Shown here: positions 31,131 to 41,537 of the stretch, piece after piece
Layout of the letters: the number at the start of each line of letters is the position of its first letter
Numbering within the stretch: position 1 is the first letter of the stretch
Assembly (NCBI GenBank): GCA_050261575.1
Contig: JBLNDL010000075.1
Location: forward strand, 1-41,537
Direction of reading: 5' to 3'
Source of the DNA: Sphingomonadaceae bacterium
Lineage (GTDB): Bacteria > Chloroflexota > UBA6077
DNA: 41,537 bases
The notes under the pieces: generated by a model
The model's input: only the letters and a program-made list of their open reading frames with translations
What the model was told of the DNA's origin: nothing
The model's database searches: none
Program-made: the position numbers and the translations under genes

Positions 31131-34031
31131 CTACCCCTGCCTCAGCGCCATCTGGATCACCTGCGCCAAGTGCAGCGCCCGTCGGTCCGTGCACTGGGCT
31201 ATCTGCTCCCTGCAACTGAAGCCGTCCGCCACTATCAGGCTGTCCCTGGGGGCGCTCCTCACCGCAGGCAGCAACACCCGCTCCCCGATTTGGACCGACA
31301 GCTCGTAGTGTCCCTTCTCGAAGCCGAACGGCCCGGCCATGCCGCAGCAGCCGCTGTCGAGCAGGGTGAACTCCAGGCCCAACCGGTCGAGCAGCGCCTC
31401 ATCGTGGCCCATCTGCATGATGGACTTGTGGTGGCAATGGCCGTGCACCACGGCCTTCCGCTCCAGTCGAGGCATGCGAAAGCCGCCAGCCTCCCGCTCC
31501 AGGAATTCGCCGAGCAGATAGCTCTGCCGGCTCAGCCTCGCGGCCCTCTCCTCCTCGGGGAACAGCGCAGGCAGCTCGTCACGGAAGACCGATAGGCAGC
31601 TCGGCTCCAGTCCCACAACCGGCACACCAGCGTCGATGTCGGGGCCGAGGGCGTCCATCACGCGCTCGAGCAGCCGCCGGGCCAGCCCGAGCATGCCGTA
31701 GTCGTAGAGGGGACGGCCACAGCAGAGGTCGCTCTTCGGCAGCACCACCTGGAAGCCGGCGGCCTCCAACACCTCGACTGCCGCCCGTCCAACCTCGGGG
31801 TCGAAGTGGTTGTTGAACGTGTCGGGCCACAGGATCACCCTGGGCATCCCGTGGTTGCGAGGCGCCCTCTTTCTGAACCACTGCTCGAAGGTCTGAGAGG
31901 CAAATGCGGGGATGCTGCGCTCCGGGGCGATGCCAGCAGCGACCTTGGCCAGATCCCGCAGGAGGGGCGTCTGGGTGAAGAAGTTGGCCACACCGGGGGC
32001 ACGAGAGGCGAGGCGTGCCCAGTACATGATCAGGCCGAAGACATAGGCGCTCCTCGGCCGCAGCCGGCCCTCGTAGTAGTGGGAGAGGAACTCCGCCTTG
32101 TAGGTGGCCATGTCCACGTTCACCGGGCAGTCGCCCTTGCACCCCTTGCAAGCCAGGCAGAGGTCCAGAGACTCCTTCACCCGCTCGTCCCTCCACCCGC
32201 CGGTGATCACGTCACCGCGCAGCATCTCGAACAGCAGGCGAGCGCGACCGCGAGTGGAGAATCTCTCCTCCCGCGTCGCCATGAAGCTGGGGCACATGGT
32301 CCCGCCGTCCAGCCGCCTGCACTTGCCCACCCCGACGCATCGCAGGGAGGCTTCGGCGAAGCTGCCGTCCTCCTCGGGAAATCGAAAGTGGGTCTTTGGC
32401 CGCCACGGCCGATAGTCAGCACCGAGGCGAAGGTTCTCGTCCGCCTGGTACGGATCCACCACCTTGCCGGGGTTCATCTTCCCGACCGGATCCCACAACC
32501 CTTTGAACTCGCGGAACGCTCCGACCAGATCGTCACCGAACATCTTGGGAAGCAGCTCTGCGCGAGCCTGGCCGTCGCCGTGCTCGCCAGAGAGGGAGCC
32601 TCCGTACCTGACCACGAGGTCGGCCCCCTCCTGGAGGAACGAGCGGAACTTGGAGATGCCCTCCGCCGTGGCGAGGTCGAAGTCGATCAGGGCGTGGACG
32701 CACCCTTGGCCATAGTGGCCGTAGAAGCCGCCGTGGTAGCCGTACCCATCCAGTAGACGGCGCAGCTCGCGCAGGTAGTCGCCAAGCCTCTCCGGGGCGA
32801 CTGCCGAGTCCTCCCAGCCCGGCCAGGTGTTCCTCATGCCGGGCACGTGGGCGGAGGCGCCAAAGCCCGATTCCCTCAGGGCCAGCATCATCTGGCGCCC
32901 GGCACGGTCCGCGAACACCTTCATCCCGGTGACGGTCCCGCGTCGCCCAAGGCGGTCCATCGCCTCACGAGCGCGGTCGTTGGCGTCCGCTTGGGTCTCG
33001 CCGCCGAACTCCACCAGGAACCAGCCGTCCCCCTCGGGCAGGAGTGCCACGTTGTCCAGCAGTATCCGCTTTCGATGCATGTACTCGACCAGCCGGTCGT
33101 CCAGGCCCTCCAGCCCAATGGGCCCGTGAGCCATCACCTCCATCACCTCGTCGCTGGCGCGGAAGATGTCGGGGAAACCAAGCACCAGCAGCGTCCGCCC
33201 TGGAGGGCTCGGCACCAGCCGAAGAGTGGCCTCCAGCACAGTCACGCAGCTCCCCTCTGTGCCCACCAGCGCACGCGCGACGTTGAACCCCTTCTCCGGC
33301 AGCAGTTGGTCCAGGTTGTAGCCAGAGACCCTCCTTGGGATCCGCGGGTAGCGGTCCCTGATCAGTTCGGCGTAGCGGTCGCGCAACGACTTCAGTCCGG
33401 CGTAGATCTGACCCCGCCTGCCCCCGGCCTGAATGATGGTGTCCAGGTCCTGCTCGCGGGTCGGCCCCACCCGGAGCCGCAGGCCGTCGTACGTCAGGAC
33501 CTCCAACTCCTCCACGTTGTCCACGGTGTTGCCGGCCATGACGGAGTGGACGCCACAGGAGTTGTTCCCGATCATCCCACCCAAGGTGCAGCGGTTGTGC
33601 GTGGAGGGATCGGGCCCAAACGTGAGTGCGTGGCGCTCGGCGGCGTTCCGCAGGTCGTCCAGGATGGTTCCGGGCTCCACCCGCGCGCGCCTACCCTGAG
33701 GGTCGAGGTCGATCACACGGTTGAGGTACTTCGAGAAGTCCATGACGACCGCCACGTTGCAGCACTGCCCGGCCTGGCTCGTGCCCGCGCCGCGGGGAAG
33801 GATCGGGGCACCGAAACGCCGGCAGACCTCCACCGTCTCGACCACGTCCTCGACGGTGCGAGGGATCACCACTCCGATGGGCACCTGCCTGTAGTTGGAC
33901 GCGTCGGTCGAGTAGAGGGCCCTGCTCCCGAGGTCGAACCTCACCTCGCCCCGAATCCTGCGTCTCAGTTCAGTGGCCAACTCCTCGGCATCGCCAAGGA
34001 AACGTCGGGCATCGCGGTTGGTGTGCTCCAT
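31131..34031 (-). CDS. FAD-linked oxidoreductase with 4Fe-4S and CCG domains (YdiJ/D-2-hydroxyacid dehydrogenase-like)
   Basis: YSTDASNY, RGAGTS, GGMIGNNSCG, SGEHGDG, CVGVGKC, CLACKGCKGDCP, CCGRP, HGHCH, CCGMAG. True start ATG 34031 (MEHTNRD). Confidence 0.93.
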   Translation of the reverse strand: MEHTNRDARRFLGDAEELATELRRRIRGEVRFDLGSRALYSTDASNYRQVPIGVVIPRTVEDVVETVEVCRRFGAPILPRGAGTSQAGQCCNVAVVMDFSKYLNRVIDLDPQGRRARVEPGTILDDLRNAAERHALTFGPDPSTHNRCTLGGMIGNNSCGVHSVMAGNTVDNVEELEVLTYDGLRLRVGPTREQDLDTIIQAGGRRGQIYAGLKSLRDRYAELIRDRYPRIPRRVSGYNLDQLLPEKGFNVARALVGTEGSCVTVLEATLRLVPSPPGRTLLVLGFPDIFRASDEVMEVMAHGPIGLEGLDDRLVEYMHRKRILLDNVALLPEGDGWFLVEFGGETQADANDRAREAMDRLGRRGTVTGMKVFADRAGRQMMLALRESGFGASAHVPGMRNTWPGWEDSAVAPERLGDYLRELRRLLDGYGYHGGFYGHYGQGCVHALIDFDLATAEGISKFRSFLQEGADLVVRYGGSLSGEHGDGQARAELLPKMFGDDLVGAFREFKGLWDPVGKMNPGKVVDPYQADENLRLGADYRPWRPKTHFRFPEEDGSFAEASLRCVGVGKCRRLDGGTMCPSFMATREERFSTRGRARLLFEMLRGDVITGGWRDERVKESLDLCLACKGCKGDCPVNVDMATYKAEFLSHYYEGRLRPRSAYVFGLIMYWARLASRAPGVANFFTQTPLLRDLAKVAAGIAPERSIPAFASQTFEQWFRKRAPRNHGMPRVILWPDTFNNHFDPEVGRAAVEVLEAAGFQVVLPKSDLCCGRPLYDYGMLGLARRLLERVMDALGPDIDAGVPVVGLEPSCLSVFRDELPALFPEEERAARLSRQSYLLGEFLEREAGGFRMPRLERKAVVHGHCHHKSIMQMGHDEALLDRLGLEFTLLDSGCCGMAGPFGFEKGHYELSVQIGERVLLPAVRSAPRDSLIVADGFSCREQIAQCTDRRALHLAQVIQMALRQG

Positions 34032-34221
34032 GCGGCTCGACCACCCCTTCTTCCATTGAGTGCGGTTGGGCCGACGGCGGCCCGAGACGGCAATCGCGAG
34101 GTGTCGCGGTGCGGGTTGGGGAGGCTGGTTCCGAACCCTCCAGGCACGGACCCAGTCGGCCGCAGCCTGGCCGGGGCTCCAGGGAAGATGAAGAGGCAAG
34201 AGGCATGCCATCCCTCCCTCC

Positions 34222-34250
34222 TTGACCGTCATCAGGGTAGCTAGTAAACT
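34222..34250 (+). promoter_or_regulatory. Promoter of the kinase/ANTAR operon
   Basis: TTGACC-17nt-TAAACT. Confidence 0.65.
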
Positions 34251-34295
34251 GCCACTCGGTAAGAAACCGTCCAGTGCGATGGGGCACGCAAATCG

Positions 34296-35426
34296 ATGCT
34301 TCGTGGAGCCATTGGCCGCATCGTCGAGATCCTCGTCCGCCACGCCCTCACCACAACCGCCAACTGGCTGGAGGAGAACTCCGACCTCGTCGTGGCGACG
34401 TGGGGCGAACGGCTTCACCTGTCCATGCCCAGCTACGTCCCCCTGATTCCGGAGATGCAGGGGTGGGGCACCCGGAGCCTCGGCCTCCTGGTGCAGATGC
34501 TTCGAGCTCGGGAGGATCCGGAGCGCGACAGGATCACCTCGGAACTCGAGCGTGTCGGGCGCGAAATGGCCTCGCTTCACCTGGAGCGCGGCATCCCACT
34601 CTACGAGATCCTCAGGGCAGCGTCGCTCTTCCGGCTCTCTGTCCTCAACGCGGTCGAGAGGATGCTGCGCAGCCGGATGTGGATCGCCTTTCCCCTGGAC
34701 ATCCTCAAGGCCGAAGATGTGATCAACATGGCACTCGACAATCAGATGCTGATCACCTCCGAGTCCTACCTGGAGGAGCGCGACCGGATCATCCAGCACA
34801 GCCAGTCCGAACTGGAGGCAACCAACCACCAGTTGAAGGTGCTCGTTCAGGAGATGCACCACCGGATCAAGAACAACCTTCAGACTGTCGCGGACCTGCT
34901 GACCCTGGAGATCCACAGCGGCCGCAACATCCCGACGGAGATGGCCCTCAGGGAGAGCATCTCTCGCGTCAGGAGCATCGCGGCCGTTCACGAGCTGCTG
35001 TCGGCGGAGAACATCCGGGTCGCGGACATCAAGGAGCTCGCGGAGCTGATCACCGAGAACTGCGCCAACAGCATGGCGGGCTCTCACGGCCGCGTGAAGT
35101 GCATCGTGCAGGGAGAGAGCATCCTCCTCCCGTCGAAGCAGGCGACGGCGTTGGCGCTGGTAATGACCGAGCTGGTGAACAACGCCCTGGAGCACGCCTT
35201 CAACGGCGATACCGGGACCCTGCTTCTCTCCCTCGTCGAGCAGGACGGAGAGGTGAGGGTCTCGGTGCGGGACAACGGGAAGGGCCTTCCACCCGGCTTC
35301 GACGTGGAGACCGGGTCCAATCTCGGGCTACAGATAGTGCGCACCCTGGTGACGAAGGATCTCAACGGCACCCTGGAACTGCATTCTGATGGTGGAACCA
35401 CCGCAACAGTGAGGTTCGCAAAATGA
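34296..35426 (+). CDS. Soluble sensor histidine kinase (HisKA_2 type) with helical RsbRD_N/globin-like N-terminal domain
   Basis: EMHHRIKNNLQ H-box, ELVNNALEHAF, DNGKGLP, LGLQIV. No TM helix. The sensor-domain assignment is pattern-based (VGREMASLHLERGIPLYEILRA). Confidence 0.88.
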   Translation: MLRGAIGRIVEILVRHALTTTANWLEENSDLVVATWGERLHLSMPSYVPLIPEMQGWGTRSLGLLVQMLRAREDPERDRITSELERVGREMASLHLERGIPLYEILRAASLFRLSVLNAVERMLRSRMWIAFPLDILKAEDVINMALDNQMLITSESYLEERDRIIQHSQSELEATNHQLKVLVQEMHHRIKNNLQTVADLLTLEIHSGRNIPTEMALRESISRVRSIAAVHELLSAENIRVADIKELAELITENCANSMAGSHGRVKCIVQGESILLPSKQATALALVMTELVNNALEHAFNGDTGTLLLSLVEQDGEVRVSVRDNGKGLPPGFDVETGSNLGLQIVRTLVTKDLNGTLELHSDGGTTATVRFAK

Positions 35427-36004
35427 TGGAGACCTTGAGGGTCGTTCTGGCCGACGACGAGAGCATCCGGCTCATGAGTCTCAAGACCCAGTTGGAGTCG
35501 CTGGGACTTCAGGTGGTAGGAGAGGCGGTCAACGGCAAGCAGGCCGTCGACCTGGTCTGTCGGCTCAAGCCCGATCTGGCTATCCTCGACATCAAGATGC
35601 CGGAGATGGACGGGTTGGAGGCCGCAAAGGCCATCGCCGCCGAGTATCCCATCCCGGTAATCGTGCTGACAGCTTACAGCGAGCGCTCTCTGGCCGAGAG
35701 GGCGATCGAGGCAGGGGTCTTCGCCTACCTCATGAAGCCGGTCTCCGAGGATGATCTCCTCCCGACGATCCTCCTCGCGAAGTCCCGCTTCCAGGAGTTC
35801 CAGGATCTCCGCAGGGGAATCAGCGATCTCAAGGAGGCGCTGGAGACCCGCAAGCTGATCGAGCGCGCCAAGGGGATCCTGATGGAGAGGCGCAACCTCA
35901 CGGAGGCGGAGGCCTTCCGCCGAATGCAGATCCAGAGCCAGAACGAGAACAAGAAGCTGGCGGAGATCGCCCAGGCGATCATCATGGCCGACCGGATGCT
36001 GTAG
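35423..36004 (+). CDS. ANTAR-domain response regulator (PdtaR/EutV-like RNA antiterminator)
   Basis: REC: LADDE, LDIKMP, LTAYS, YLMKP. ANTAR: LETRKLIERAKGILM...EAEAFRRMQ...AEIAQAII. ATGA overlap with the kinase. Confidence 0.95.
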   Translation: MMETLRVVLADDESIRLMSLKTQLESLGLQVVGEAVNGKQAVDLVCRLKPDLAILDIKMPEMDGLEAAKAIAAEYPIPVIVLTAYSERSLAERAIEAGVFAYLMKPVSEDDLLPTILLAKSRFQEFQDLRRGISDLKEALETRKLIERAKGILMERRNLTEAEAFRRMQIQSQNENKKLAEIAQAIIMADRML

Positions 36005-36039
36005 CGACTCCCTCACATCCTAGAAGGGCATCTTCCCCA

Positions 36040-36711
36040 ATGAGCCAGAGAAGGAAGCTGAGCAACCTCCGAGCCGACCCCAACACCGGCGGGAAGCCCG
36101 GAACTCGCCCCGCGGAACGAAGCCGGAGATCGCCGGCCCGCGCGCGGGCCGAGAGCCGCCGCCGCATCACCTTCGGCATCGTCGCCGTTGGGTTCCTCAT
36201 CGCGGTGTGGGTGCTCACCATGAGTCTCCGCCCGGATTCGGGCGTCGCGAGCCCTCAGTCCTCCCAAACCCAGGCCGGAACAGACACGGCGAGGCTGGAC
36301 GCTGCCATCGCACGCCTCCAGGAGCGGTTGCGGCAGAACCCGAACGACGTTGTCGCGATGGTGGAGTTGGGCAACGCCTACTACGACAGCGGCCGGTGGG
36401 GAGAGGCGATCCCATGGTACGAGCAGGCACTGCAGTCGATCCCCGCCAACACGGACGTGCGGACGGACCTTGGAACGGCCTACTTCTACTCCGGGAACCT
36501 GGAGAAGGCGAAGGAGGAGTGGTTCAAAGTGCTGGAGCAGGAGCCGAACAAGGTGCAGACCCACTACAATCTCGCGGTCCTCTACTCCCACATGACACCG
36601 CCGGATACAGAGAACGCGGCCAAGGCGTGGGAGACGGTGATCCGAGTGGCACCCGGCTCGGAGCAGGCGAAGGCCGCGGAGAAGCGGCTGAAGGACCTTG
36701 GCAGACGGTAG
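36040..36711 (+). CDS. Membrane-anchored tetratricopeptide repeat protein
   Basis: One TM helix (ITFGIVAVGFLIAVWVL), then TPRs: LGNAYYDSG...AIPWYEQAL, DLGTAYFYSG, HYNLAVLY. Confidence 0.88.
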   Translation: MSQRRKLSNLRADPNTGGKPGTRPAERSRRSPARARAESRRRITFGIVAVGFLIAVWVLTMSLRPDSGVASPQSSQTQAGTDTARLDAAIARLQERLRQNPNDVVAMVELGNAYYDSGRWGEAIPWYEQALQSIPANTDVRTDLGTAYFYSGNLEKAKEEWFKVLEQEPNKVQTHYNLAVLYSHMTPPDTENAAKAWETVIRVAPGSEQAKAAEKRLKDLGRR

Positions 36712-36738
36712 ACGCCCAGTCTTTCGTGTAAGAGACCG

Positions 36739-36766
36739 TTGACAGCCGGGCAACCGGGTGTATAAT
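36739..36766 (+). promoter_or_regulatory. Consensus sigma70 promoter of the rex operon
   Basis: TTGACA-16nt-TATAAT. Confidence 0.9.
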
Positions 36767-36780
36767 CACTGTGAACCGTT

Positions 36781-36818
36781 TCACCAATGCTGGTGATGCG
36801 GGGGAATAGACGGGGCTG
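36781..36818 (+). promoter_or_regulatory. Candidate ANTAR target RNA (dual hexaloop hairpins)
   Basis: P1 TCACC-AATGCT-GGTGA, 10-nt linker, P2 TAG-ACGGGG-CTG. Both loops have A1 and G4. Confidence 0.55.
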
Positions 36819-36821
36819 ACG

Positions 36822-36869
36822 AAGGGCTCTGTGGTCTCCTCTGGCGGGAGGCGCAGAGCCCTTTTTGTT
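36822..36869 (+). terminator. Intrinsic terminator (attenuator) inside the rex operon leader
   Basis: AAGGGCTCTGT-G-GTCTCCT-CTGGC-GGGAGGC-GCAGAGCCC-TTTTTGTT, downstream of the promoter and upstream of rex. Confidence 0.85.
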
Positions 36870-37092
36870 GGCCCGGTTCGTGCGCGTCTTCACGAAGCCA
36901 TCCGTGCAGTGGCTCACGGGTACGTGGAAAGGGACCGTTCCGTGAACGGTAGCGGCACAGCGCGGAGGATCCGATGAAGGCGCTTTTCTATGTGCAAGTC
37001 TGTGCAGCACTTCACAGATATGTTTGTGCAGGTCTTCACAGAATGCCCTCTCGGACCGAACCCGGGTGGGCGACGCCGCATGGAGGTGAACG

Positions 37093-37794
37093 GTGAGAGT
37101 CCCGCACATCTCCCCGGCAACCGTTGCACGGCTTCCCATCTACATCCAGGGCCTCGAGAGACTGCTGCAACTCGGCGTCCGACTCGCCTCCTCGCAACGT
37201 CTCGCCCACGTCACGGGCATCGAGGCCGCCCAGATCCGAAGGGACCTCTCCTATCTCGGCGCCTTCGGGACACCGGGTGTCGGCTATGACGTTCCCGGCC
37301 TCCACCACGAGCTGTCCCACTACCTCGGCATCTCCCAGGTCTGCCCTATCGCTCTGGTGGGCTACGGCAACCTCGGCTCGGCCCTCGCCAGTTCCAGCGC
37401 CCTGCGGGAACGCAACTTCCACATCGCCGCCATCTTCGACGTCGCCCCGGACAAGGTCGGCAAGGCGGTCGGCGGCCTGCTGATCGAGCCGCCCTCCAGG
37501 ATCACATCAGTCATCAGGGATCTCGGCATCGAGATCGCCGTCCTGGCCACGCCCCCAGACGCAGCTCAGGAGCTCGCGGGGCGTCTGGTTGAGGCCGGCG
37601 TCACCGCCATCCTCAACTTCGCACCCGTCACCCTGAGGGTCCCACCGCACGTCTCCGTCAGAAACATCGACGTCGCCGCGGAGATGCAGATCCTCTCCTT
37701 TGCTGAACGTATGAAGCACGCCCAGCCCCCGGCTTTCGGCGCCAGGCGCGCCGTTCGGAAGCATTTGGGCAGACAGTTGAAGGAGAAGCACTGA
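37093..37794 (+). CDS. rex: Redox-sensing transcriptional repressor Rex
   Basis: ATVARLPIY, QIRRDLSYLGAFGTPGVGYDV, LVGYGNLGSAL, AILNFAP. RBS GGAGGTG. Confidence 0.97.
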   Translation: MRVPHISPATVARLPIYIQGLERLLQLGVRLASSQRLAHVTGIEAAQIRRDLSYLGAFGTPGVGYDVPGLHHELSHYLGISQVCPIALVGYGNLGSALASSSALRERNFHIAAIFDVAPDKVGKAVGGLLIEPPSRITSVIRDLGIEIAVLATPPDAAQELAGRLVEAGVTAILNFAPVTLRVPPHVSVRNIDVAAEMQILSFAERMKHAQPPAFGARRAVRKHLGRQLKEKH

Positions 37795-38183
37795 TGCGAA
37801 TGGCCGAGATCGCCCGGCTGCTGAATGCCAGATCTCTGTCTCTCCCGAATGGCGGCGGACCCGACGTGCAATCGGCCTTCGCCTCCGATCTGATGAGCGA
37901 CGTTCTCGCCCTATCCAGACCGGGGTCCCTGCTCCTGACCGGCCTCACCAATCCCCAGGTCGTCAGGACATCGGAGGTCGCAGGGGTGGCAGCGATCGTC
38001 TTCGTTCGCGGCAAGCACGTCCCACCCGAAACGGAGCGGCTGGCCCGAGAGGCGGGCATCCCGTTGGTGGAAACCCCGCTCACCCTCTTCGAGGCGTGCG
38101 GACGGCTCTACAGCGCGGGCCTCAGGGGGTGCGACCCCGCCAGCTACTCCACACTTCCCGCTGAGCGCGAGGTCCAGAGGTGA
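37794..38183 (+). CDS. DRTGG domain protein
   Basis: FASDLMSDVLA...LLLTGLTNPQVVRTSEV...FVRGK...FEACGRLY. Confidence 0.9.
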   Translation: MRMAEIARLLNARSLSLPNGGGPDVQSAFASDLMSDVLALSRPGSLLLTGLTNPQVVRTSEVAGVAAIVFVRGKHVPPETERLAREAGIPLVETPLTLFEACGRLYSAGLRGCDPASYSTLPAEREVQR

Positions 38184-39289
38184 AAGCCATCAAGGTCGGA
38201 CATTACCGAGCCTCGGAATCGGAACTGACCAAGATCCAGGAACTGATGTACGAACTCCGGGTCGAGGAGATCATGACGCGACCCGTCTTCACGATTCGGC
38301 CCGACGTATCGATGAGGCAGGCCAAGGAGGTGATGCGCTTCCGGCGCATCTCCGGACTGCCGGTCGTCGAGGGCAGCGCCATGGTCGGCATCGTCAGCGT
38401 GGAAGATGTAATCAGGTGGTTGGAGCACGGGGCCCGAGATGCGGCAGTCCGCGACTGGATGACCACACGAGTCTACACCGTCCGGAGCCACGAGCCAGCG
38501 GTTCAAGCCATCAACAGATTCAGCTCCTACAAGGTGGGTCGCCTTCCCGTCCTGGATCGCCAAGGGGAGCTGGTGGGGATCGTCACCCCCGGCGACGTCA
38601 TCAACCAGGTCCTGCGGATCCTGGACACCCTCTATCGGGAACAGGAGAGCCACCGCCCCCGCGTCGGCTGTACCCTCCGCGATCTGGTGTCCGACACCAC
38701 CACCGTGACCCTCCGCTTCGAGGTTCCGGCCGGCGATTTCCAGCGGGCCGGGGCTGCCGCCACTCGGGTCAAGCGGATACTCGACGGCCTCGGGGTCGAT
38801 CCGGCCATCGTGCGCCGGGCCGGAATCGCCGCCTACGAGGCGGAGATGAACCTGGTGATGCACACCTCCCATGGGGGGCGGCTGGTCGTCGAGATCGATC
38901 CACAACGGCTGCTGGTCCAGGCGCAGGACGACGGCCCGGGCATCGAGAGCGTGGAGCAGGCCCTCACCCCCGGGTTCTCCACCGCGCCAGATTGGATCAG
39001 GGAACTCGGCTTCGGGGCAGGCATGGGCCTCGACAACATCCGGAGGTGCGCGGATCACTTCTCTATCGAGTCCGAGGTCGGCAGGGGAACGACGGTGCGC
39101 GCCACGATCGCGGTGGACACCCCGAAGGATGCCGCAACCGGCGGAGGACACCGTCCGGACTGGAGCCCACAGCAGTCGGGGGTGGGGATCGAGGTGGGAA
39201 GCCAGCTAGCGGGTGGGTCCCAGGCAGGTGAGGTGGCCGCCAGTTACTGGAGGTCGCTGCAGGGCTCGGCGTGCCTCGGTCAGGCATAG
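38180..39289 (+). CDS. Tandem CBS domains fused to an RsbT-like anti-sigma/Ser-Thr kinase (HATPase_c)
   Basis: CBS pair (ISGLPVV, VGRLPVL), then DFQRAGAAA, AYEAEMNLVMH, DDGPGI, GFSTA, GFGAGMGLDNI, ESEVGRGT. Confidence 0.9.
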   Translation: MKAIKVGHYRASESELTKIQELMYELRVEEIMTRPVFTIRPDVSMRQAKEVMRFRRISGLPVVEGSAMVGIVSVEDVIRWLEHGARDAAVRDWMTTRVYTVRSHEPAVQAINRFSSYKVGRLPVLDRQGELVGIVTPGDVINQVLRILDTLYREQESHRPRVGCTLRDLVSDTTTVTLRFEVPAGDFQRAGAAATRVKRILDGLGVDPAIVRRAGIAAYEAEMNLVMHTSHGGRLVVEIDPQRLLVQAQDDGPGIESVEQALTPGFSTAPDWIRELGFGAGMGLDNIRRCADHFSIESEVGRGTTVRATIAVDTPKDAATGGGHRPDWSPQQSGVGIEVGSQLAGGSQAGEVAASYWRSLQGSACLGQA

Positions 39290-39357
39290 AGGGGAGGCTG
39301 GCGGACCACACCTGGCGCCTCCAGGCATCGGAAGGCGAGTCCAGTTCGGGAGGAAAC

Positions 39358-39708
39358 ATGGTTACCGTGAGGGATGTGGTGGAGAGGCTGCCGGTCAAGG
39401 TTGTGGCGGGGGATAGACGGCTCAGCCGGGAGATCACCAGCGGCTACGTGGGGGACCTCCTCAGCCTGGTGATGGCGCGAGCCCCCTTCGGCAGTGTCTG
39501 GGTAACGGTCCAGGGCCACCCCAACGTCGTTGCCGTGGCCGTCCTGGTGGGGATCTCCGCCATCATCGTGTCGGAGGGGGCGAGGATCGACGCCGCCACG
39601 CTGGAGAAGGCGGACCAGGAGGGCATTCCTATCCTGTCGAGCGCGGCCACCTCCTACGACCTGGTTGCCGAGTTGTCCGGCCTGGGGCTGAAGGGCGCCC
39701 CGCTCTGA
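39358..39708 (+). CDS. DRTGG domain protein
   Basis: GYVGDLLSLVMA...WVTVQGHPNVVAVA...KADQEGIPIL. ATG 39358 after GGAGG. Confidence 0.9.
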   Translation: MVTVRDVVERLPVKVVAGDRRLSREITSGYVGDLLSLVMARAPFGSVWVTVQGHPNVVAVAVLVGISAIIVSEGARIDAATLEKADQEGIPILSSAATSYDLVAELSGLGLKGAPL

Positions 39709-39928
39709 GTTCTTCGGCGCCACGCCCGGCGCGCGCTCGCACGCCCAGAGTGAAGGGGACGCCACCAGGTGCGAGGCAGGTAACGCACCGCACGGCATCA
39801 CTCTCCCAGAGTCGACGGTGAGCAGGGATGCGGGACGGAGCGGCAAGCGGCAGGGGCGTCCCGGGAAAGCGCCCCCAAGGGCAAACGGGGCGATCGCCCC
39901 GATGCCGACGCTAATGGAGGACGGGCTC

Positions 39929-40408
39929 ATGAACACGATCGCATCGGAGCATCTCGATCTCAGACGGGTAGACGCGATCCTGGAGGGCAGGAAGGCAGAG
40001 AAGGGAGCCATCATCCCGATCCTCCAGGAGGTTCAGGAGGCCTACGGTTACCTGCCTAGGGAGGCGCTGGCTCGCATCGCGGACTCGATAGGGGTTCCAT
40101 TCAGCCGAGTCTACGGAGTCGCCACCTTCTACTCCCAGTTCTACCTCACCCGCAGAGGCAAGAACGTGATCAAGGTGTGCGACGGGACCGCCTGCCACGT
40201 TCGGGGCGCGACCCACAACATCAACACCCTTCGCCATCACCTGGGGGTCGAGCCTGGCCAGACCACGGAGGACTACCAGTTCACCTACGAGGTGGTCTAC
40301 TGCCTGGGGGCCTGCGCACTCGGCCCGGTCGCCGTCGTGAACGGACAGGTGAAGGGGAAGTGTACCGCGGAACGGATGCACAGGATCGTGGAGGAGTTGA
40401 GGGCTTAG
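39929..40408 (+). CDS. NuoE/HydC-like 2Fe-2S subunit
   Basis: IPILQEVQEAYGYLP, VATFYSQF, CDGTAC, CLGAC. ATG 39929 after GGAGG. Confidence 0.93.
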   Translation: MNTIASEHLDLRRVDAILEGRKAEKGAIIPILQEVQEAYGYLPREALARIADSIGVPFSRVYGVATFYSQFYLTRRGKNVIKVCDGTACHVRGATHNINTLRHHLGVEPGQTTEDYQFTYEVVYCLGACALGPVAVVNGQVKGKCTAERMHRIVEELRA

Positions 40409-40419
40409 AGGAGGAACCG

Positions 40420-40794
40420 ATGCCTAGGTTGGGCAGTCTGGAGGAGCTGAGGCGGCTGAAAGAGGAAGCCCAGAGGGTGATCAAGGTCCGGGGCGACACC
40501 GGCACCCGGATCACCGTGGGAATGGGCACCTGCGGCATCGCCGCCGGAGCCCGGGAGACGATGCATGCCATCATGCGGGAACTCGAAGTGCGCAACATAG
40601 AAGCGAACGTCGTCACCGTGGGCTGCATAGGGCTGTGCGCGCAGGAGCCGCTGGTCGACATCGAGCAGGCCGGGGCCCCGCGAGTCACCTATGGCAAGGT
40701 GACATCGGACATGGTCCCTACCCTGATCAACGAGCACCTGGTCAACGGCCGCATAGTGACGGAGTGGGTAGTGGCGAAGGGTCCCACCATGTAG
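40420..40794 (+). CDS. Thioredoxin-like (2Fe-2S) ferredoxin-domain subunit (HndB/HydD-like)
   Basis: ITVGMGTCGIAAGA, GCIGLCAQEPLV, YGKVT. Confidence 0.9.
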   Translation: MPRLGSLEELRRLKEEAQRVIKVRGDTGTRITVGMGTCGIAAGARETMHAIMRELEVRNIEANVVTVGCIGLCAQEPLVDIEQAGAPRVTYGKVTSDMVPTLINEHLVNGRIVTEWVVAKGPTM

Positions 40795-40803
40795 CGGTCC
40801 CGA

Positions 40804-40861
40804 CCGAGGACTGAGGACAGAGGACTGGGGCCCAGGTGCAGGGCGGGTCTCGGACCCGCCC
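40804..40861. repeat. Heptamer tandem repeat followed by a REP-like palindrome
   Basis: CCGAGGA CTGAGGA CAGAGGA CTGGGGC, then GGGCGGGTC-TCG-GACCCGCCC. Confidence 0.6.
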
Positions 40862-40932
40862 CTTGACCCGGGGCTCGGAACCCATATGCAGGACGCGCTC
40901 AGCATTGCTGAGGAGGATAAGGAGTGCGTGAT

Positions 40933-41537
40933 ATGGCACACCCCTTCTACCGGGCCCATGTTCTGACCTGCGCCGGTAGCGGTTGCAAGGCATCGGGGTC
41001 GGCCCAGGTGATGACCGAACTGGATGCCGAGGTCAGGCGCAGAGGGCTTCAAGATGAGGTGAAGTTGGTTCAGACGGGCTGCCGTGGCTTCTGCGCCATG
41101 GGCCCCGTCATGATGATCTACCCGGAAGGCATCTTCTACTGCCTGGTCCAGCCCGAGGATGTCCCGAAAGTGGTGGAGGAGACCCTCATCAAGGGTCGTC
41201 CCGTGCAGAGACTCCTCTACAGGGAGCCCGAGACGGCCAGGACCCTGCCATTCTACAAGGACATCCCGTTCTACGGCAGGCAGATGCGGATCGCCCTGCG
41301 CAACTGCGGCTTCATCAACCCGGAGGACATCGACGAGTACATCGCCAAGGGCGGCTACGAGGCGCTGGCGAAGGCTCTCTTCGAGATGACACCGGAACAG
41401 ATCATCGACACGGTCGAGAGGGCTGGTCTGCGCGGTCGTGGCGGCGCAGGCTTCCCCACCGCTCTCAAGTGGGACTTCTGCCGCAAGGCCCCAGGCGATG
41501 TCAAGTACGTCATCTGCAACGCCGACGAGGGTGACCC
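40933..41537 (+). CDS. NuoF/HydB-like FMN/NADH-binding subunit with N-terminal 2Fe-2S domain, 5' part
   Basis: Not in the ORF track because it runs off the edge. Manual translation: [18 protein letters not shown]...[11 protein letters not shown]...[10 protein letters not shown]...[12 protein letters not shown]...CNADEGD. Confidence 0.95.

Follow-up and report, generated by a model that had tools for sequence, protein, structure and literature searches.

Leader RNAs read by ANTAR-domain antiterminators, such as those of EutV/EutW at the E. faecalis eut locus, NasR at nasF and AmiR at amiE, are the closest described counterparts of the element studied here. Actinobacterial ANTAR regulons also cover lipid and other pathways. 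An ANTAR target RNA has been defined by two hairpins of at least three pairs, each with a hexaloop carrying A in position 1 and G in position 4 (A1/G4), by a short linker, and by a second hairpin that competes with a terminator (PMC3369931, PMC8164766). Most actinobacterial ANTAR RNAs overlap ribosome-binding sites rather than terminators (PMC8164766), and the known and predicted regulons given in Table S2 of PMC3369931 are dominated by nitrogen and ethanolamine metabolism. Here we analyse positions 36739-36869 of a 41,537-nt contig (JBLNDL010000075.1, read on the forward strand and called the window below) from a Chloroflexota genome of 3.72 Mb and 65.4% G+C that is listed as Sphingomonadaceae bacterium. 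A preliminary description, made from the sequence alone, had proposed that this region combines Rex repression with ANTAR antitermination. The best explanation of our observations is that it comprises the promoter and 5′ leader of a rex-hydrogenase (hyd) operon, one of six lineage-specific copies of an attenuator. On balance, we think it somewhat probable that the element would act as a Rex-controlled promoter followed by an ANTAR-type attenuator, in which two hairpins, P1 and AT, form a protein-stabilised antiterminator. Whereas the described ANTAR leaders serve nitrogen and ethanolamine genes, this one precedes [FeFe]-hydrogenase operons, and does so in Chloroflexota.

The leader begins at a sigma-70 promoter, TTGACA-16-TATAAT (36739-36766, hexamers at 36739-36744 and 36761-36766), which matches the consensus at 12 of 12 positions, as the preliminary description had it. 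This is the sole promoter-like site in 35900-37300 (0.1 expected from shuffles), and transcription would start at about 36773. The first structure of the predicted RNA is P1 (36778-36799). Its core consists of UCACC (36781-36785), the hexaloop AAUGCU (36786-36791) and GGUGA (36792-36796), and is extended by two pairs past a U-U mismatch. The candidate antiterminator hairpin AT follows at 36810-36832 (ACGGGGCU, the loop GACGAAG at 36818-36824, and GGCUCUGU), and then a predicted intrinsic terminator, T (36824-36869), with a stem-loop at 36824-36861 and the U-tract TTTTTGTT at 36862-36869. In our own terminator scan the stem has 10 pairs, seven of them G-C, and the hairpin is worth -29.7 kcal/mol, so that both the G+C-rich hairpin and the U-tract of an intrinsic terminator are present in the window. 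The strong U-tailed terminator that had been placed about 220 nt before rex is thus there, its U-tract lying 224 nt from the GTG start codon at 37093. A consensus scan missed it, the long inner stem exceeding the loop limit; the only terminator-like site which that scan reported in 35900-37300, at 36998-37019, was rejected as the palindrome of a Rex box (37001-37016). As a whole, the leader folds at z = -7.1, a value equalled by none of 200 shuffles. A possible leader peptide, a 10-codon frame opened by the ATG at 36787, was rejected on reading for want of a ribosome-binding site, and no downstream complement to the P1 loop that could form a pseudoknot was seen by eye. One of four DNA sequencing runs covers 36791-37046; it differs at a single position, 36935, and offers no informative variation.

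Conservation of the leader and of its gene order in relatives had been proposed as a check, and both were found: there are six leader copies in four of the five genomes of one soil Chloroflexota family, in hyd loci headed by a kinase/REC-ANTAR pair. The window, on contig C75 of genome G000, holds one copy and contig C24 of the same genome another; two more lie in G003 (G003a and G003b) and one each in G004 and G001. A covariance model built from three copies (R1; window, G003a and C24) scored the six at 73.7, 73.6, 69, 36.1, 33.5 and 32.8 bits; among 66 genomes of the class, the best remaining match reached 27 bits and lies in featureless sequence. When the model was rebuilt from all six (R2), the copies scored 57.7-74 bits and the next match, in coding sequence of G011, 30.1 bits. 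The weaker matches (27 bits or less with R1, and that in G011) were rejected as coding or featureless sequence. No further copy was detected in the five family genomes at E ≤ 0.1, with none in G002, and Rfam 15 contained no family matching the window leader at E ≤ 10 or the other five at E ≤ 1. An exact scan of genome contigs for TATAAT, a gap and P1 returned 11 loci. Only L065, which carries the sequence of the G003 copy, contains the leader, and the other 10 are chance matches in A+T-rich or coding DNA. Allowing one mismatch, the P1 pattern had eight matches in the 66 genomes, of which three are leaders and five lack a promoter or terminator. Searches with Rex itself gave two loci among metagenome contigs, at 39-43% identity and useless for leader comparison; in 41 related genomes Rex homologs were at most 46% identical outside the window's own genome, and none had an ANTAR gene within 1.5 kb.

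All six copies are co-directional with a downstream [FeFe]-hydrogenase-type (HydABC-like) operon. The described ANTAR leaders likewise belong to loci with a regulator and a kinase at their head, and the presence of several leader copies per locus resembles eut, where there are four terminators (PMC8934654). The window, G003a and G004 copies directly follow ANTAR(-TPR) genes, while the C24, G003b and G001 copies stand further along the locus, after hyd genes and before a second hyd operon or structural genes. G003a lies 18 nt past the regulator stop codon and shares with the window the TTGACA-16-TATAAT promoter, an identical P1 and GGGCU-N-ACGAAGGG, with a different terminator stem; G003b precedes the second hyd operon. 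In G004 the order is kinase, regulator, TPR gene, leader, hydC. The C24 copy follows the end of a hydrogenase-like gene and precedes a paralogous operon, rex2-DRTGG-CBS/HATPase-DRTGG-PHP-HydC-HATPase-HydB. This second copy in the same genome goes beyond the preliminary description, as do the 7-nt loop of the second hairpin and the Rex-like boxes past the terminator, both described below.

P1 is found where it had been reported, as a conserved hairpin with an A1/G4 hexaloop. In the six-copy alignment the extended helix is paired in 46 of 48 cells, and two of its pairs are changed on both sides. The loops read AAUGCU, AAUGGU, AAUGCU, AACGUG, AAUGUC and AAGAUG, with A1 and A2 in all six copies and G4 in five; positions 3, 5 and 6 vary. 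The second hairpin had been taken to be P2 (36807-36818), with UAG at 36807-36809, the loop ACGGGG and CUG at 36816-36818. P2 can be drawn there, but it is paired in only 9 of 18 cells, the background level of slid controls, and its loop has A1/G4 in two of the six copies, namely the window and G003a, where the stem shrinks to 2 bp. It ends 5 nt before the core terminator stem, not 3 nt as had been counted, and does not overlap it. P2 is nested in the AT 5′ arm and the two are mutually exclusive; an ANTAR protein holding P2 would therefore promote termination instead of preventing it.

AT is the helix conserved alongside P1, and by comparison of the copies it, rather than P2, would be the true antiterminator. 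It corresponds to a hairpin that the preliminary description had offered as an alternative competitor of the terminator, GGGGCU-GACGAAG-GGCUCU at 36812-36830, here extended to 36810-36832. AT is paired in 46 of 54 cells, compared with 40-56% for the slid controls. Its 3′ arm (36825-36832) forms part of the terminator 5′ arm in the window and lies wholly inside that arm in five of the six copies. The loop has 7 nt of the form N-A-Y-G-N-N-N, with G in position 4 and G or C in position 1 (GACGAAG, GACGGGA, CACGAAG, GACGAGA and GAUGUAA, and AUGCUUA in G004, where the register is our choice). The claim that both loops are A1/G4 hexaloops therefore stands for P1 only, since the conserved second loop is longer and lacks A1. 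P1 and AT nevertheless share A-Y-G in their loops, with the G fourth from the 5′ closing pair. When A1/G4 hexaloops in other registers were enumerated for the second hairpin of each copy, none was common to the copies. Both stems range over 5-9 pairs, and the linker between the extended P1 and AT is 7-11 nt long and contains a conserved AUA; the linker in eut is 5-12 nt (PMC3369931), and 2-25 nt has been accepted in actinobacteria.

Set against the described ANTAR leaders, then, the element shares the stem lengths, the P1 loop (in five of six copies), the linker, and a second hairpin that overlaps the terminator 5′ arm and excludes the terminator (partially in G003a). It differs in its second loop, which has 7 nt, G or C first and A second, and retains G4. 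RNAalifold, run on a plain MAFFT alignment of three copies, picked the same two helices, P1 and AT. In the six-copy alignment, the covariation score was matched by 9 of 500 shuffles. Judged by these comparisons, a chance pattern is rejected: the leader is a genuine, conserved cis-element. Since P1 and AT do not overlap, P1 would serve as a platform rather than a competitor, as in ANTAR leaders. AT is worth -9.4 kcal/mol in the window and -6.7 to -12.9 kcal/mol over the six copies. Terminator stems vary in sequence among the copies and all fold at -22.6 to -33.2 kcal/mol. Because T outweighs AT by a wide margin in each of them, a stabilising factor would be needed.

The bare hairpin pattern is a poor guide by itself. 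A dual-hairpin scan (two stems of at least three pairs, A1/G4 hexaloops, linker of 3-14 nt) found 928 instances on the two strands of the window genome. Of the 1556 terminator-like sites, a P2-like hairpin stands at the stem or immediately ahead of it in 122, and a hairpin pair lies just upstream in two, the window's being the better of these; this is no higher than a rough chance expectation of about five. Because the pattern is common in the genome, it proves little alone, and the case rests on conservation in relatives. The chance frequency of such hairpins before terminators would also fit an explanation that needs nothing beyond Rex, in which 36824-36869 would simply end the preceding kinase-ANTAR-TPR operon, with P1 and AT as incidental folds. 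In its favour, the TPR gene of the window comes before the terminator, which in G003 lies 150 nt past the ANTAR stop codon. However, each copy has a near-consensus promoter between the upstream stop codon and the terminator, and the C24, G003b and G001 copies follow hyd genes instead of the regulator operon. Sequence conservation, moreover, is found in P1 and AT but not in the terminator stems, which vary freely. We regard this explanation as highly improbable.

Near-consensus promoters occupy the same position in all six copies, with spacers of 16 or 17 nt, and a U-tract follows the terminator hairpin in four. A strong promoter followed by a strong terminator could also mean that the RNA of about 96 nt is a product in its own right, a free-standing, Rex-repressed small RNA; rex and the hyd genes would then rely on a separate Rex-controlled promoter past the terminator. 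Such an RNA might be an ANTAR decoy resembling EutX/Rli55, short RNAs that likewise have an ANTAR-type hairpin, their own promoter and a terminator at the end. EutX/Rli55 act in trans by sequestering EutV, and a B12 riboswitch gates them. A single hexaloop is a minimal ANTAR site (PMC8934654), which would suffice on a small RNA. Rex-like boxes past the terminator in all six copies, including four at 36879-37040 in the window, are in keeping with a downstream promoter, and in three of the six copies weak promoter-like hexamers were noticed by reading over the first of these boxes (TTGGCC-17-CACGAA, with the variants TTGGCC/TTGGTC/TTGGCA-17-CACGAA/CACAAT). These may represent a weak, Rex-controlled second promoter. 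The preliminary description had itself named a separate rex promoter as a finding that would count against it. In the window there is no sigma-70-like promoter of at least 9/12 between the terminator and rex (36870-37092), although the weak hexamers leave the point partly standing. The hexamers are missing in the other three copies, and in C24 the 85 nt between the terminator and rex2 contain none that are recognisable. Two copies lack a U-tract and hence a clean small-RNA end, and all six point into a hyd operon. An antiterminator overlapping a terminator would have no purpose in a decoy and makes sense only in cis, which is why we favour a cis-acting leader; in contrast to EutX/Rli55, each copy here stands before an operon and carries an antiterminator. 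We consider the small-RNA explanation quite unlikely.

Rex systems of Gram-positive anaerobes provide the second point of comparison. Their operator, TTGTGAA-W4-TTCACAA (PMC2883068), lies over the start site, and hydrogenase genes are among the targets, for example in Caldicellulosiruptor bescii (PMC6391272). In the window, Rex box 1 (TGTGAACCGTTTCACC, 36770-36785) begins 3 nt past the -10 hexamer and agrees with the operator at 11 of 12 specified positions; as the preliminary description had noticed, it covers the predicted start and its right half encodes the P1 5′ arm. Six sites reach this level in the 3.72-Mb genome, and three of them fall within 36770-37040, against a background of 390 sites of at least 9/12. 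The match to TGTGAA-N4-TTCACA at the promoter and the presence of a rex gene in the genome predict Rex binding. A box 3 nt after the -10 hexamer is present in five of the six copies (scores out of 12: C75 11, C24 11, G003b 10, G004 9, G001 9, and below 8 in G003a), and in every case the right half of the box encodes the P1 5′ arm. Since U-G pairs occur in P1 of G001 and in the extension, P1 would have been selected as RNA and not just as a DNA repeat. In G004 (L085), a further Rex-like repeat, TGTGTGTATAATCACA (9/12), spans the -10 hexamer of the leader promoter.

Downstream, Rex-like boxes lie directly after the terminator (CGTGCGCGTCTTCACG, 36879-36894, 8/12) and, by reading, at 36903-36918 (8/12), and two further boxes, TGTGCAGCACTTCACA at 37001-37016 and TGTGCAGGTCTTCACA at 37025-37040, score 11/12 each. 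All six copies have a second box 112-118 nt from the end of the -10 hexamer and 15-16 nt past the terminator stem, with 8-10 of 12 positions. rex is the first gene of the operon (37093-37794, forward strand; NF003992, 253 bits against a cut-off of 226, with Pfam support), so that by its sequence it appears autoregulated, as in other Rex systems. Three rex paralogs exist in the window genome. Differences from known Rex systems are the operator half-site that doubles as the arm of an RNA hairpin, the boxes past an attenuator at a fixed distance from the -10 hexamer, left halves that often read TGTGC and not TGTGA, and the number of paralogs. The superimposed Rex operator on the DNA that encodes P1 likewise sets the element apart from the described ANTAR leaders.

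What, then, might stabilise AT? The candidate is the REC-ANTAR response regulator encoded at 35423-36004 on the forward strand, next to a cytoplasmic histidine kinase with HisKA_2 and HATPase_c domains (34296-35426, forward). The preliminary description had placed both less than 1 kb upstream; this is right for the regulator, which ends 735 nt before the promoter, but the kinase ends about 1.3 kb before it. The regulator domains score well above the curated cut-offs (PF00072, 99.3 bits against 30.2; PF03861, 80 bits against 27.3), and its closest solved relatives are Rv1626 of Mycobacterium tuberculosis (1s8n, E = 1.3e-45) and EutV. The pairing of a HisKA_2 kinase with a REC-ANTAR regulator is the same as that of Rv1626, the pair named PdtaS/PdtaR. 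A second such pair, of housekeeping type and widely conserved, is encoded on contig C82 of the window genome; the window's is 49% identical to it. An ANTAR regulator at E ≤ 1e-30 is encoded in 198 of 401 genomes of the phylum, and nearly all of these proteins are about 45-58% identical, which is also the level of the C82 pair. Orthologs with 88-96% identity are confined to the family (G001, G002, G003 and G004, which with the window makes five of five genomes), the next best being 65% identical (G321 and G358); these two were rejected as sources of leaders, their unrelated contexts having no hyd genes or leader alongside. Kinase orthologs (73-85% identical) head the same locus in G001, G003 and G004, where the pair precedes DRTGG, CBS-HATPase, HydC and HydB genes as in the window. 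By these comparisons the window pair is a lineage-specific paralog.

We mapped the RNA contacts of EutV onto the regulator through the 6wsh alignment, with a 2-residue offset deduced from heptad residues named in PMC8934654. The contacts R142, K143, E146, K149, E160 and N173 are kept, K147R, R177K and Y164F are conservative changes, and R168Q, M172Q and R175N are changed. In the EutV-RNA structure G4 makes the only base-specific contact and A1 makes none, and Met172 may set the loop size that EutV accepts (PMC8934654). The regulator thus differs from EutV in having Gln at the Met172 plug and Phe at Tyr164. This Gln (residue 173) is found in the five family orthologs, across which the ANTAR domain is almost invariant, and in the G321 and G358 relatives; Met is kept by EutV, by the C82 paralog and by Rv1626, so that the window regulator also departs from the Rv1626 type at this position. 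That the plug residue and the loop size have both altered is a hint, not evidence of binding.

Several observations weigh against assigning this leader to the ANTAR regulator, or against the evidence for the leader itself. EutV-dependent induction required A1 and G4 in both loops (PMC3369931), and the second loop here departs from the A1/G4 hexaloop rule (Ramesh et al. 2012; Mehta et al. 2021). In G003b even the P1 loop, AAGAUG, lacks G4. The EutV contacts Y164, R168, M172 and R175 are F, Q, Q and N in the regulator, and M172 was reported to be essential in EutV. In G003a the AT 3′ arm overlaps merely the two bottom G-C pairs of T, and no U-tract follows T in G001 and G003b, where the label of terminator is therefore uncertain. 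The G001 copy sits inside the locus, before hydC and 3 kb from the regulator, and no leader was found between the ANTAR gene and the next gene of that genome; upstream of its kinase there was likewise no leader, just a promoter-like TTGACC-17-TAAACT. G002 yielded neither a leader nor a close HydC; its genome is 85% complete and in 620 contigs, and the hyd locus may either have been lost or have fallen into an assembly gap. The G002 contig (L087, 1-3385) encodes the kinase, the regulator (94% identical) and the TPR protein, followed by an unrelated receiver-domain gene. The weak hexamers past the terminator, mentioned above, belong here too. As for the statistics, the six-copy alignment behind the pairing counts was fitted to the P1 and AT model, and the counts therefore lean towards it. 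Changes on both sides were seen in three pairs, a count matched by 267 of 500 shuffles. With only six copies, drawn from four related genera and including two paralog pairs, the shuffle statistics are weak.

Part of this list would suit an attenuator made of the same P1, AT and T in which AT is stabilised by some other factor, whether a different RNA-binding protein, a small ligand (as in a riboswitch) or transcription kinetics. The ANTAR pair would then regulate something else, or the hyd locus by another route. The departure of the second loop from the rule, the missing equivalents of EutV Met172 and Arg175, the regulator without a detectable leader in G002 and the lack of a leader directly after the regulator in G001 all point this way, and gene neighbourhood is the sole link between regulator and leader. 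On the other hand, two hairpins with A-Y-G loops spaced 7-11 nt apart suggest a dimeric loop-binding protein over a ligand pocket. The loci showed no further RNA-binding domain, and no Rfam family matches. The near invariance of the ANTAR domain in five genomes, and the narrow distribution that regulator and leader share, also speak for the ANTAR protein. We therefore hold another stabilising factor to be unlikely, and retain the ANTAR regulator as the candidate.

In the proposed mechanism, the near-consensus promoter would give rise to an RNA whose first structure is P1, with the hexaloop A-A-Y-G-N-N, followed by the A/U-containing linker of 7-11 nt, the weak AT, and the stronger T that shares the AT 3′ arm. 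Left unassisted, T would win and the RNA of about 96 nt would be released. The phosphorylated REC-ANTAR regulator would bind P1 and then the AT loop, and would keep AT closed while polymerase passes the U-tract, allowing transcription to continue into rex and the hydrogenase genes. Rex would add a second layer through the operator that overlaps the start site, and the Rex-like boxes past the terminator could block elongation or repress a weak second promoter. The AND gate proposed in the preliminary description, with Rex and the kinase/ANTAR pair as its inputs, would agree with this arrangement. The AT 5′ arm and loop (36813-36823 in the window) are, in each of the six copies, also complementary to the U-tract and the adjoining GGCC(C/U) (36862-36875 in the window). 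Because of this complementarity, read-through transcripts could form a much longer hairpin, as judged from minimum-free-energy structures; processing, stability or a -35-like TTGGCC are candidate meanings.

The genes around the leader complete the description of the locus. The TPR-repeat protein gene (36040-36711, forward strand, by Pfam) lies between the regulator and the leader in the window and has counterparts in G004 and G002; it is missing from G003 and G001. The first ~185 residues or so of the kinase form a sensor part without a known family, for which a Pfam search returned nothing at E ≤ 10. On the opposite strand, a 1354-residue open reading frame (31131-35195) overlaps the kinase gene. 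Its Pfam domains (FAD_binding_4, FAD-oxidase_C, Fer4 and CCG, a GlcD/GlcF-like fusion) start at residue 439, and its true start is probably near 33900, the N-terminal part being an artefact of open frames in G+C-rich DNA. Downstream of rex, Pfam assigns to 37794-41537 (forward) a DRTGG protein, a CBS-HATPase protein, a second DRTGG protein, a NuoE-like protein (HydC) and a NuoF-like protein (HydB, cut by the contig end), which would be the sensor and structural genes of a HydABC-type locus. The orthologous operon of G003 ends with an Fe_hyd_lg_C [FeFe]-hydrogenase, and the locus runs through this gene into a second hydC-hydB-hydA operon. The HydB of G003 (L043, 753-3815, reverse strand) is a 1020-residue fusion of a NuoF-like part (Complex1_51K, NADH_4Fe-4S) with a GltD-like part (Fer4_20, Pyr_redox_2), which hints at an NADPH or second pyridine-nucleotide site in this hydrogenase. 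The window contig (at 41537) and the C24 contig (L066, 1-5807) both break inside a NuoF-like gene, and C24 starts with the end of a hydrogenase-like gene. For these reasons the two rex-hyd operons of the window genome are probably in tandem, as in G003, the assembly having broken on the repeat.

Literature word searches found no publication linking ANTAR to hydrogenase or to Chloroflexota, and the word hydrogenase has no occurrence in the main text and seven text supplements of PMC3369931. A bolder version of the proposal, which we put forward tentatively and consider rather doubtful as a whole, is that a subclade of ANTAR proteins with a Gln plug reads a variant code, a hexaloop A-A-Y-G-N-N plus a heptaloop N-A-Y-G-N-N-N, and controls [FeFe]-hydrogenase operons that stand in tandem in Chloroflexota. 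One set of nucleotides would serve both as a Rex half-site in DNA and as an arm of the ANTAR landing hairpin in RNA, giving a three-input gate on a 130-nt module with Rex acting on initiation, ANTAR on termination and Rex again on elongation. The variant second loop and the changed plug residue offer a natural test case for how ANTAR proteins choose loop size and sequence, a question left by the EutV-RNA structure. The overlap of Rex operator and hairpin is a compact case of one sequence read as both DNA and RNA, and it would allow the interplay between NADH sensing and the kinase signal to be tested on a template of about 130 nt.

To our knowledge, almost no RNA regulation has been characterised in Chloroflexota. 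If the proposal is true, an ANTAR-gated hydrogenase locus would extend the ANTAR family to hydrogen and redox metabolism and to this phylum. Even if the regulator does not act here, the leader would still be a new conserved attenuator of bifurcating-type hydrogenase operons.

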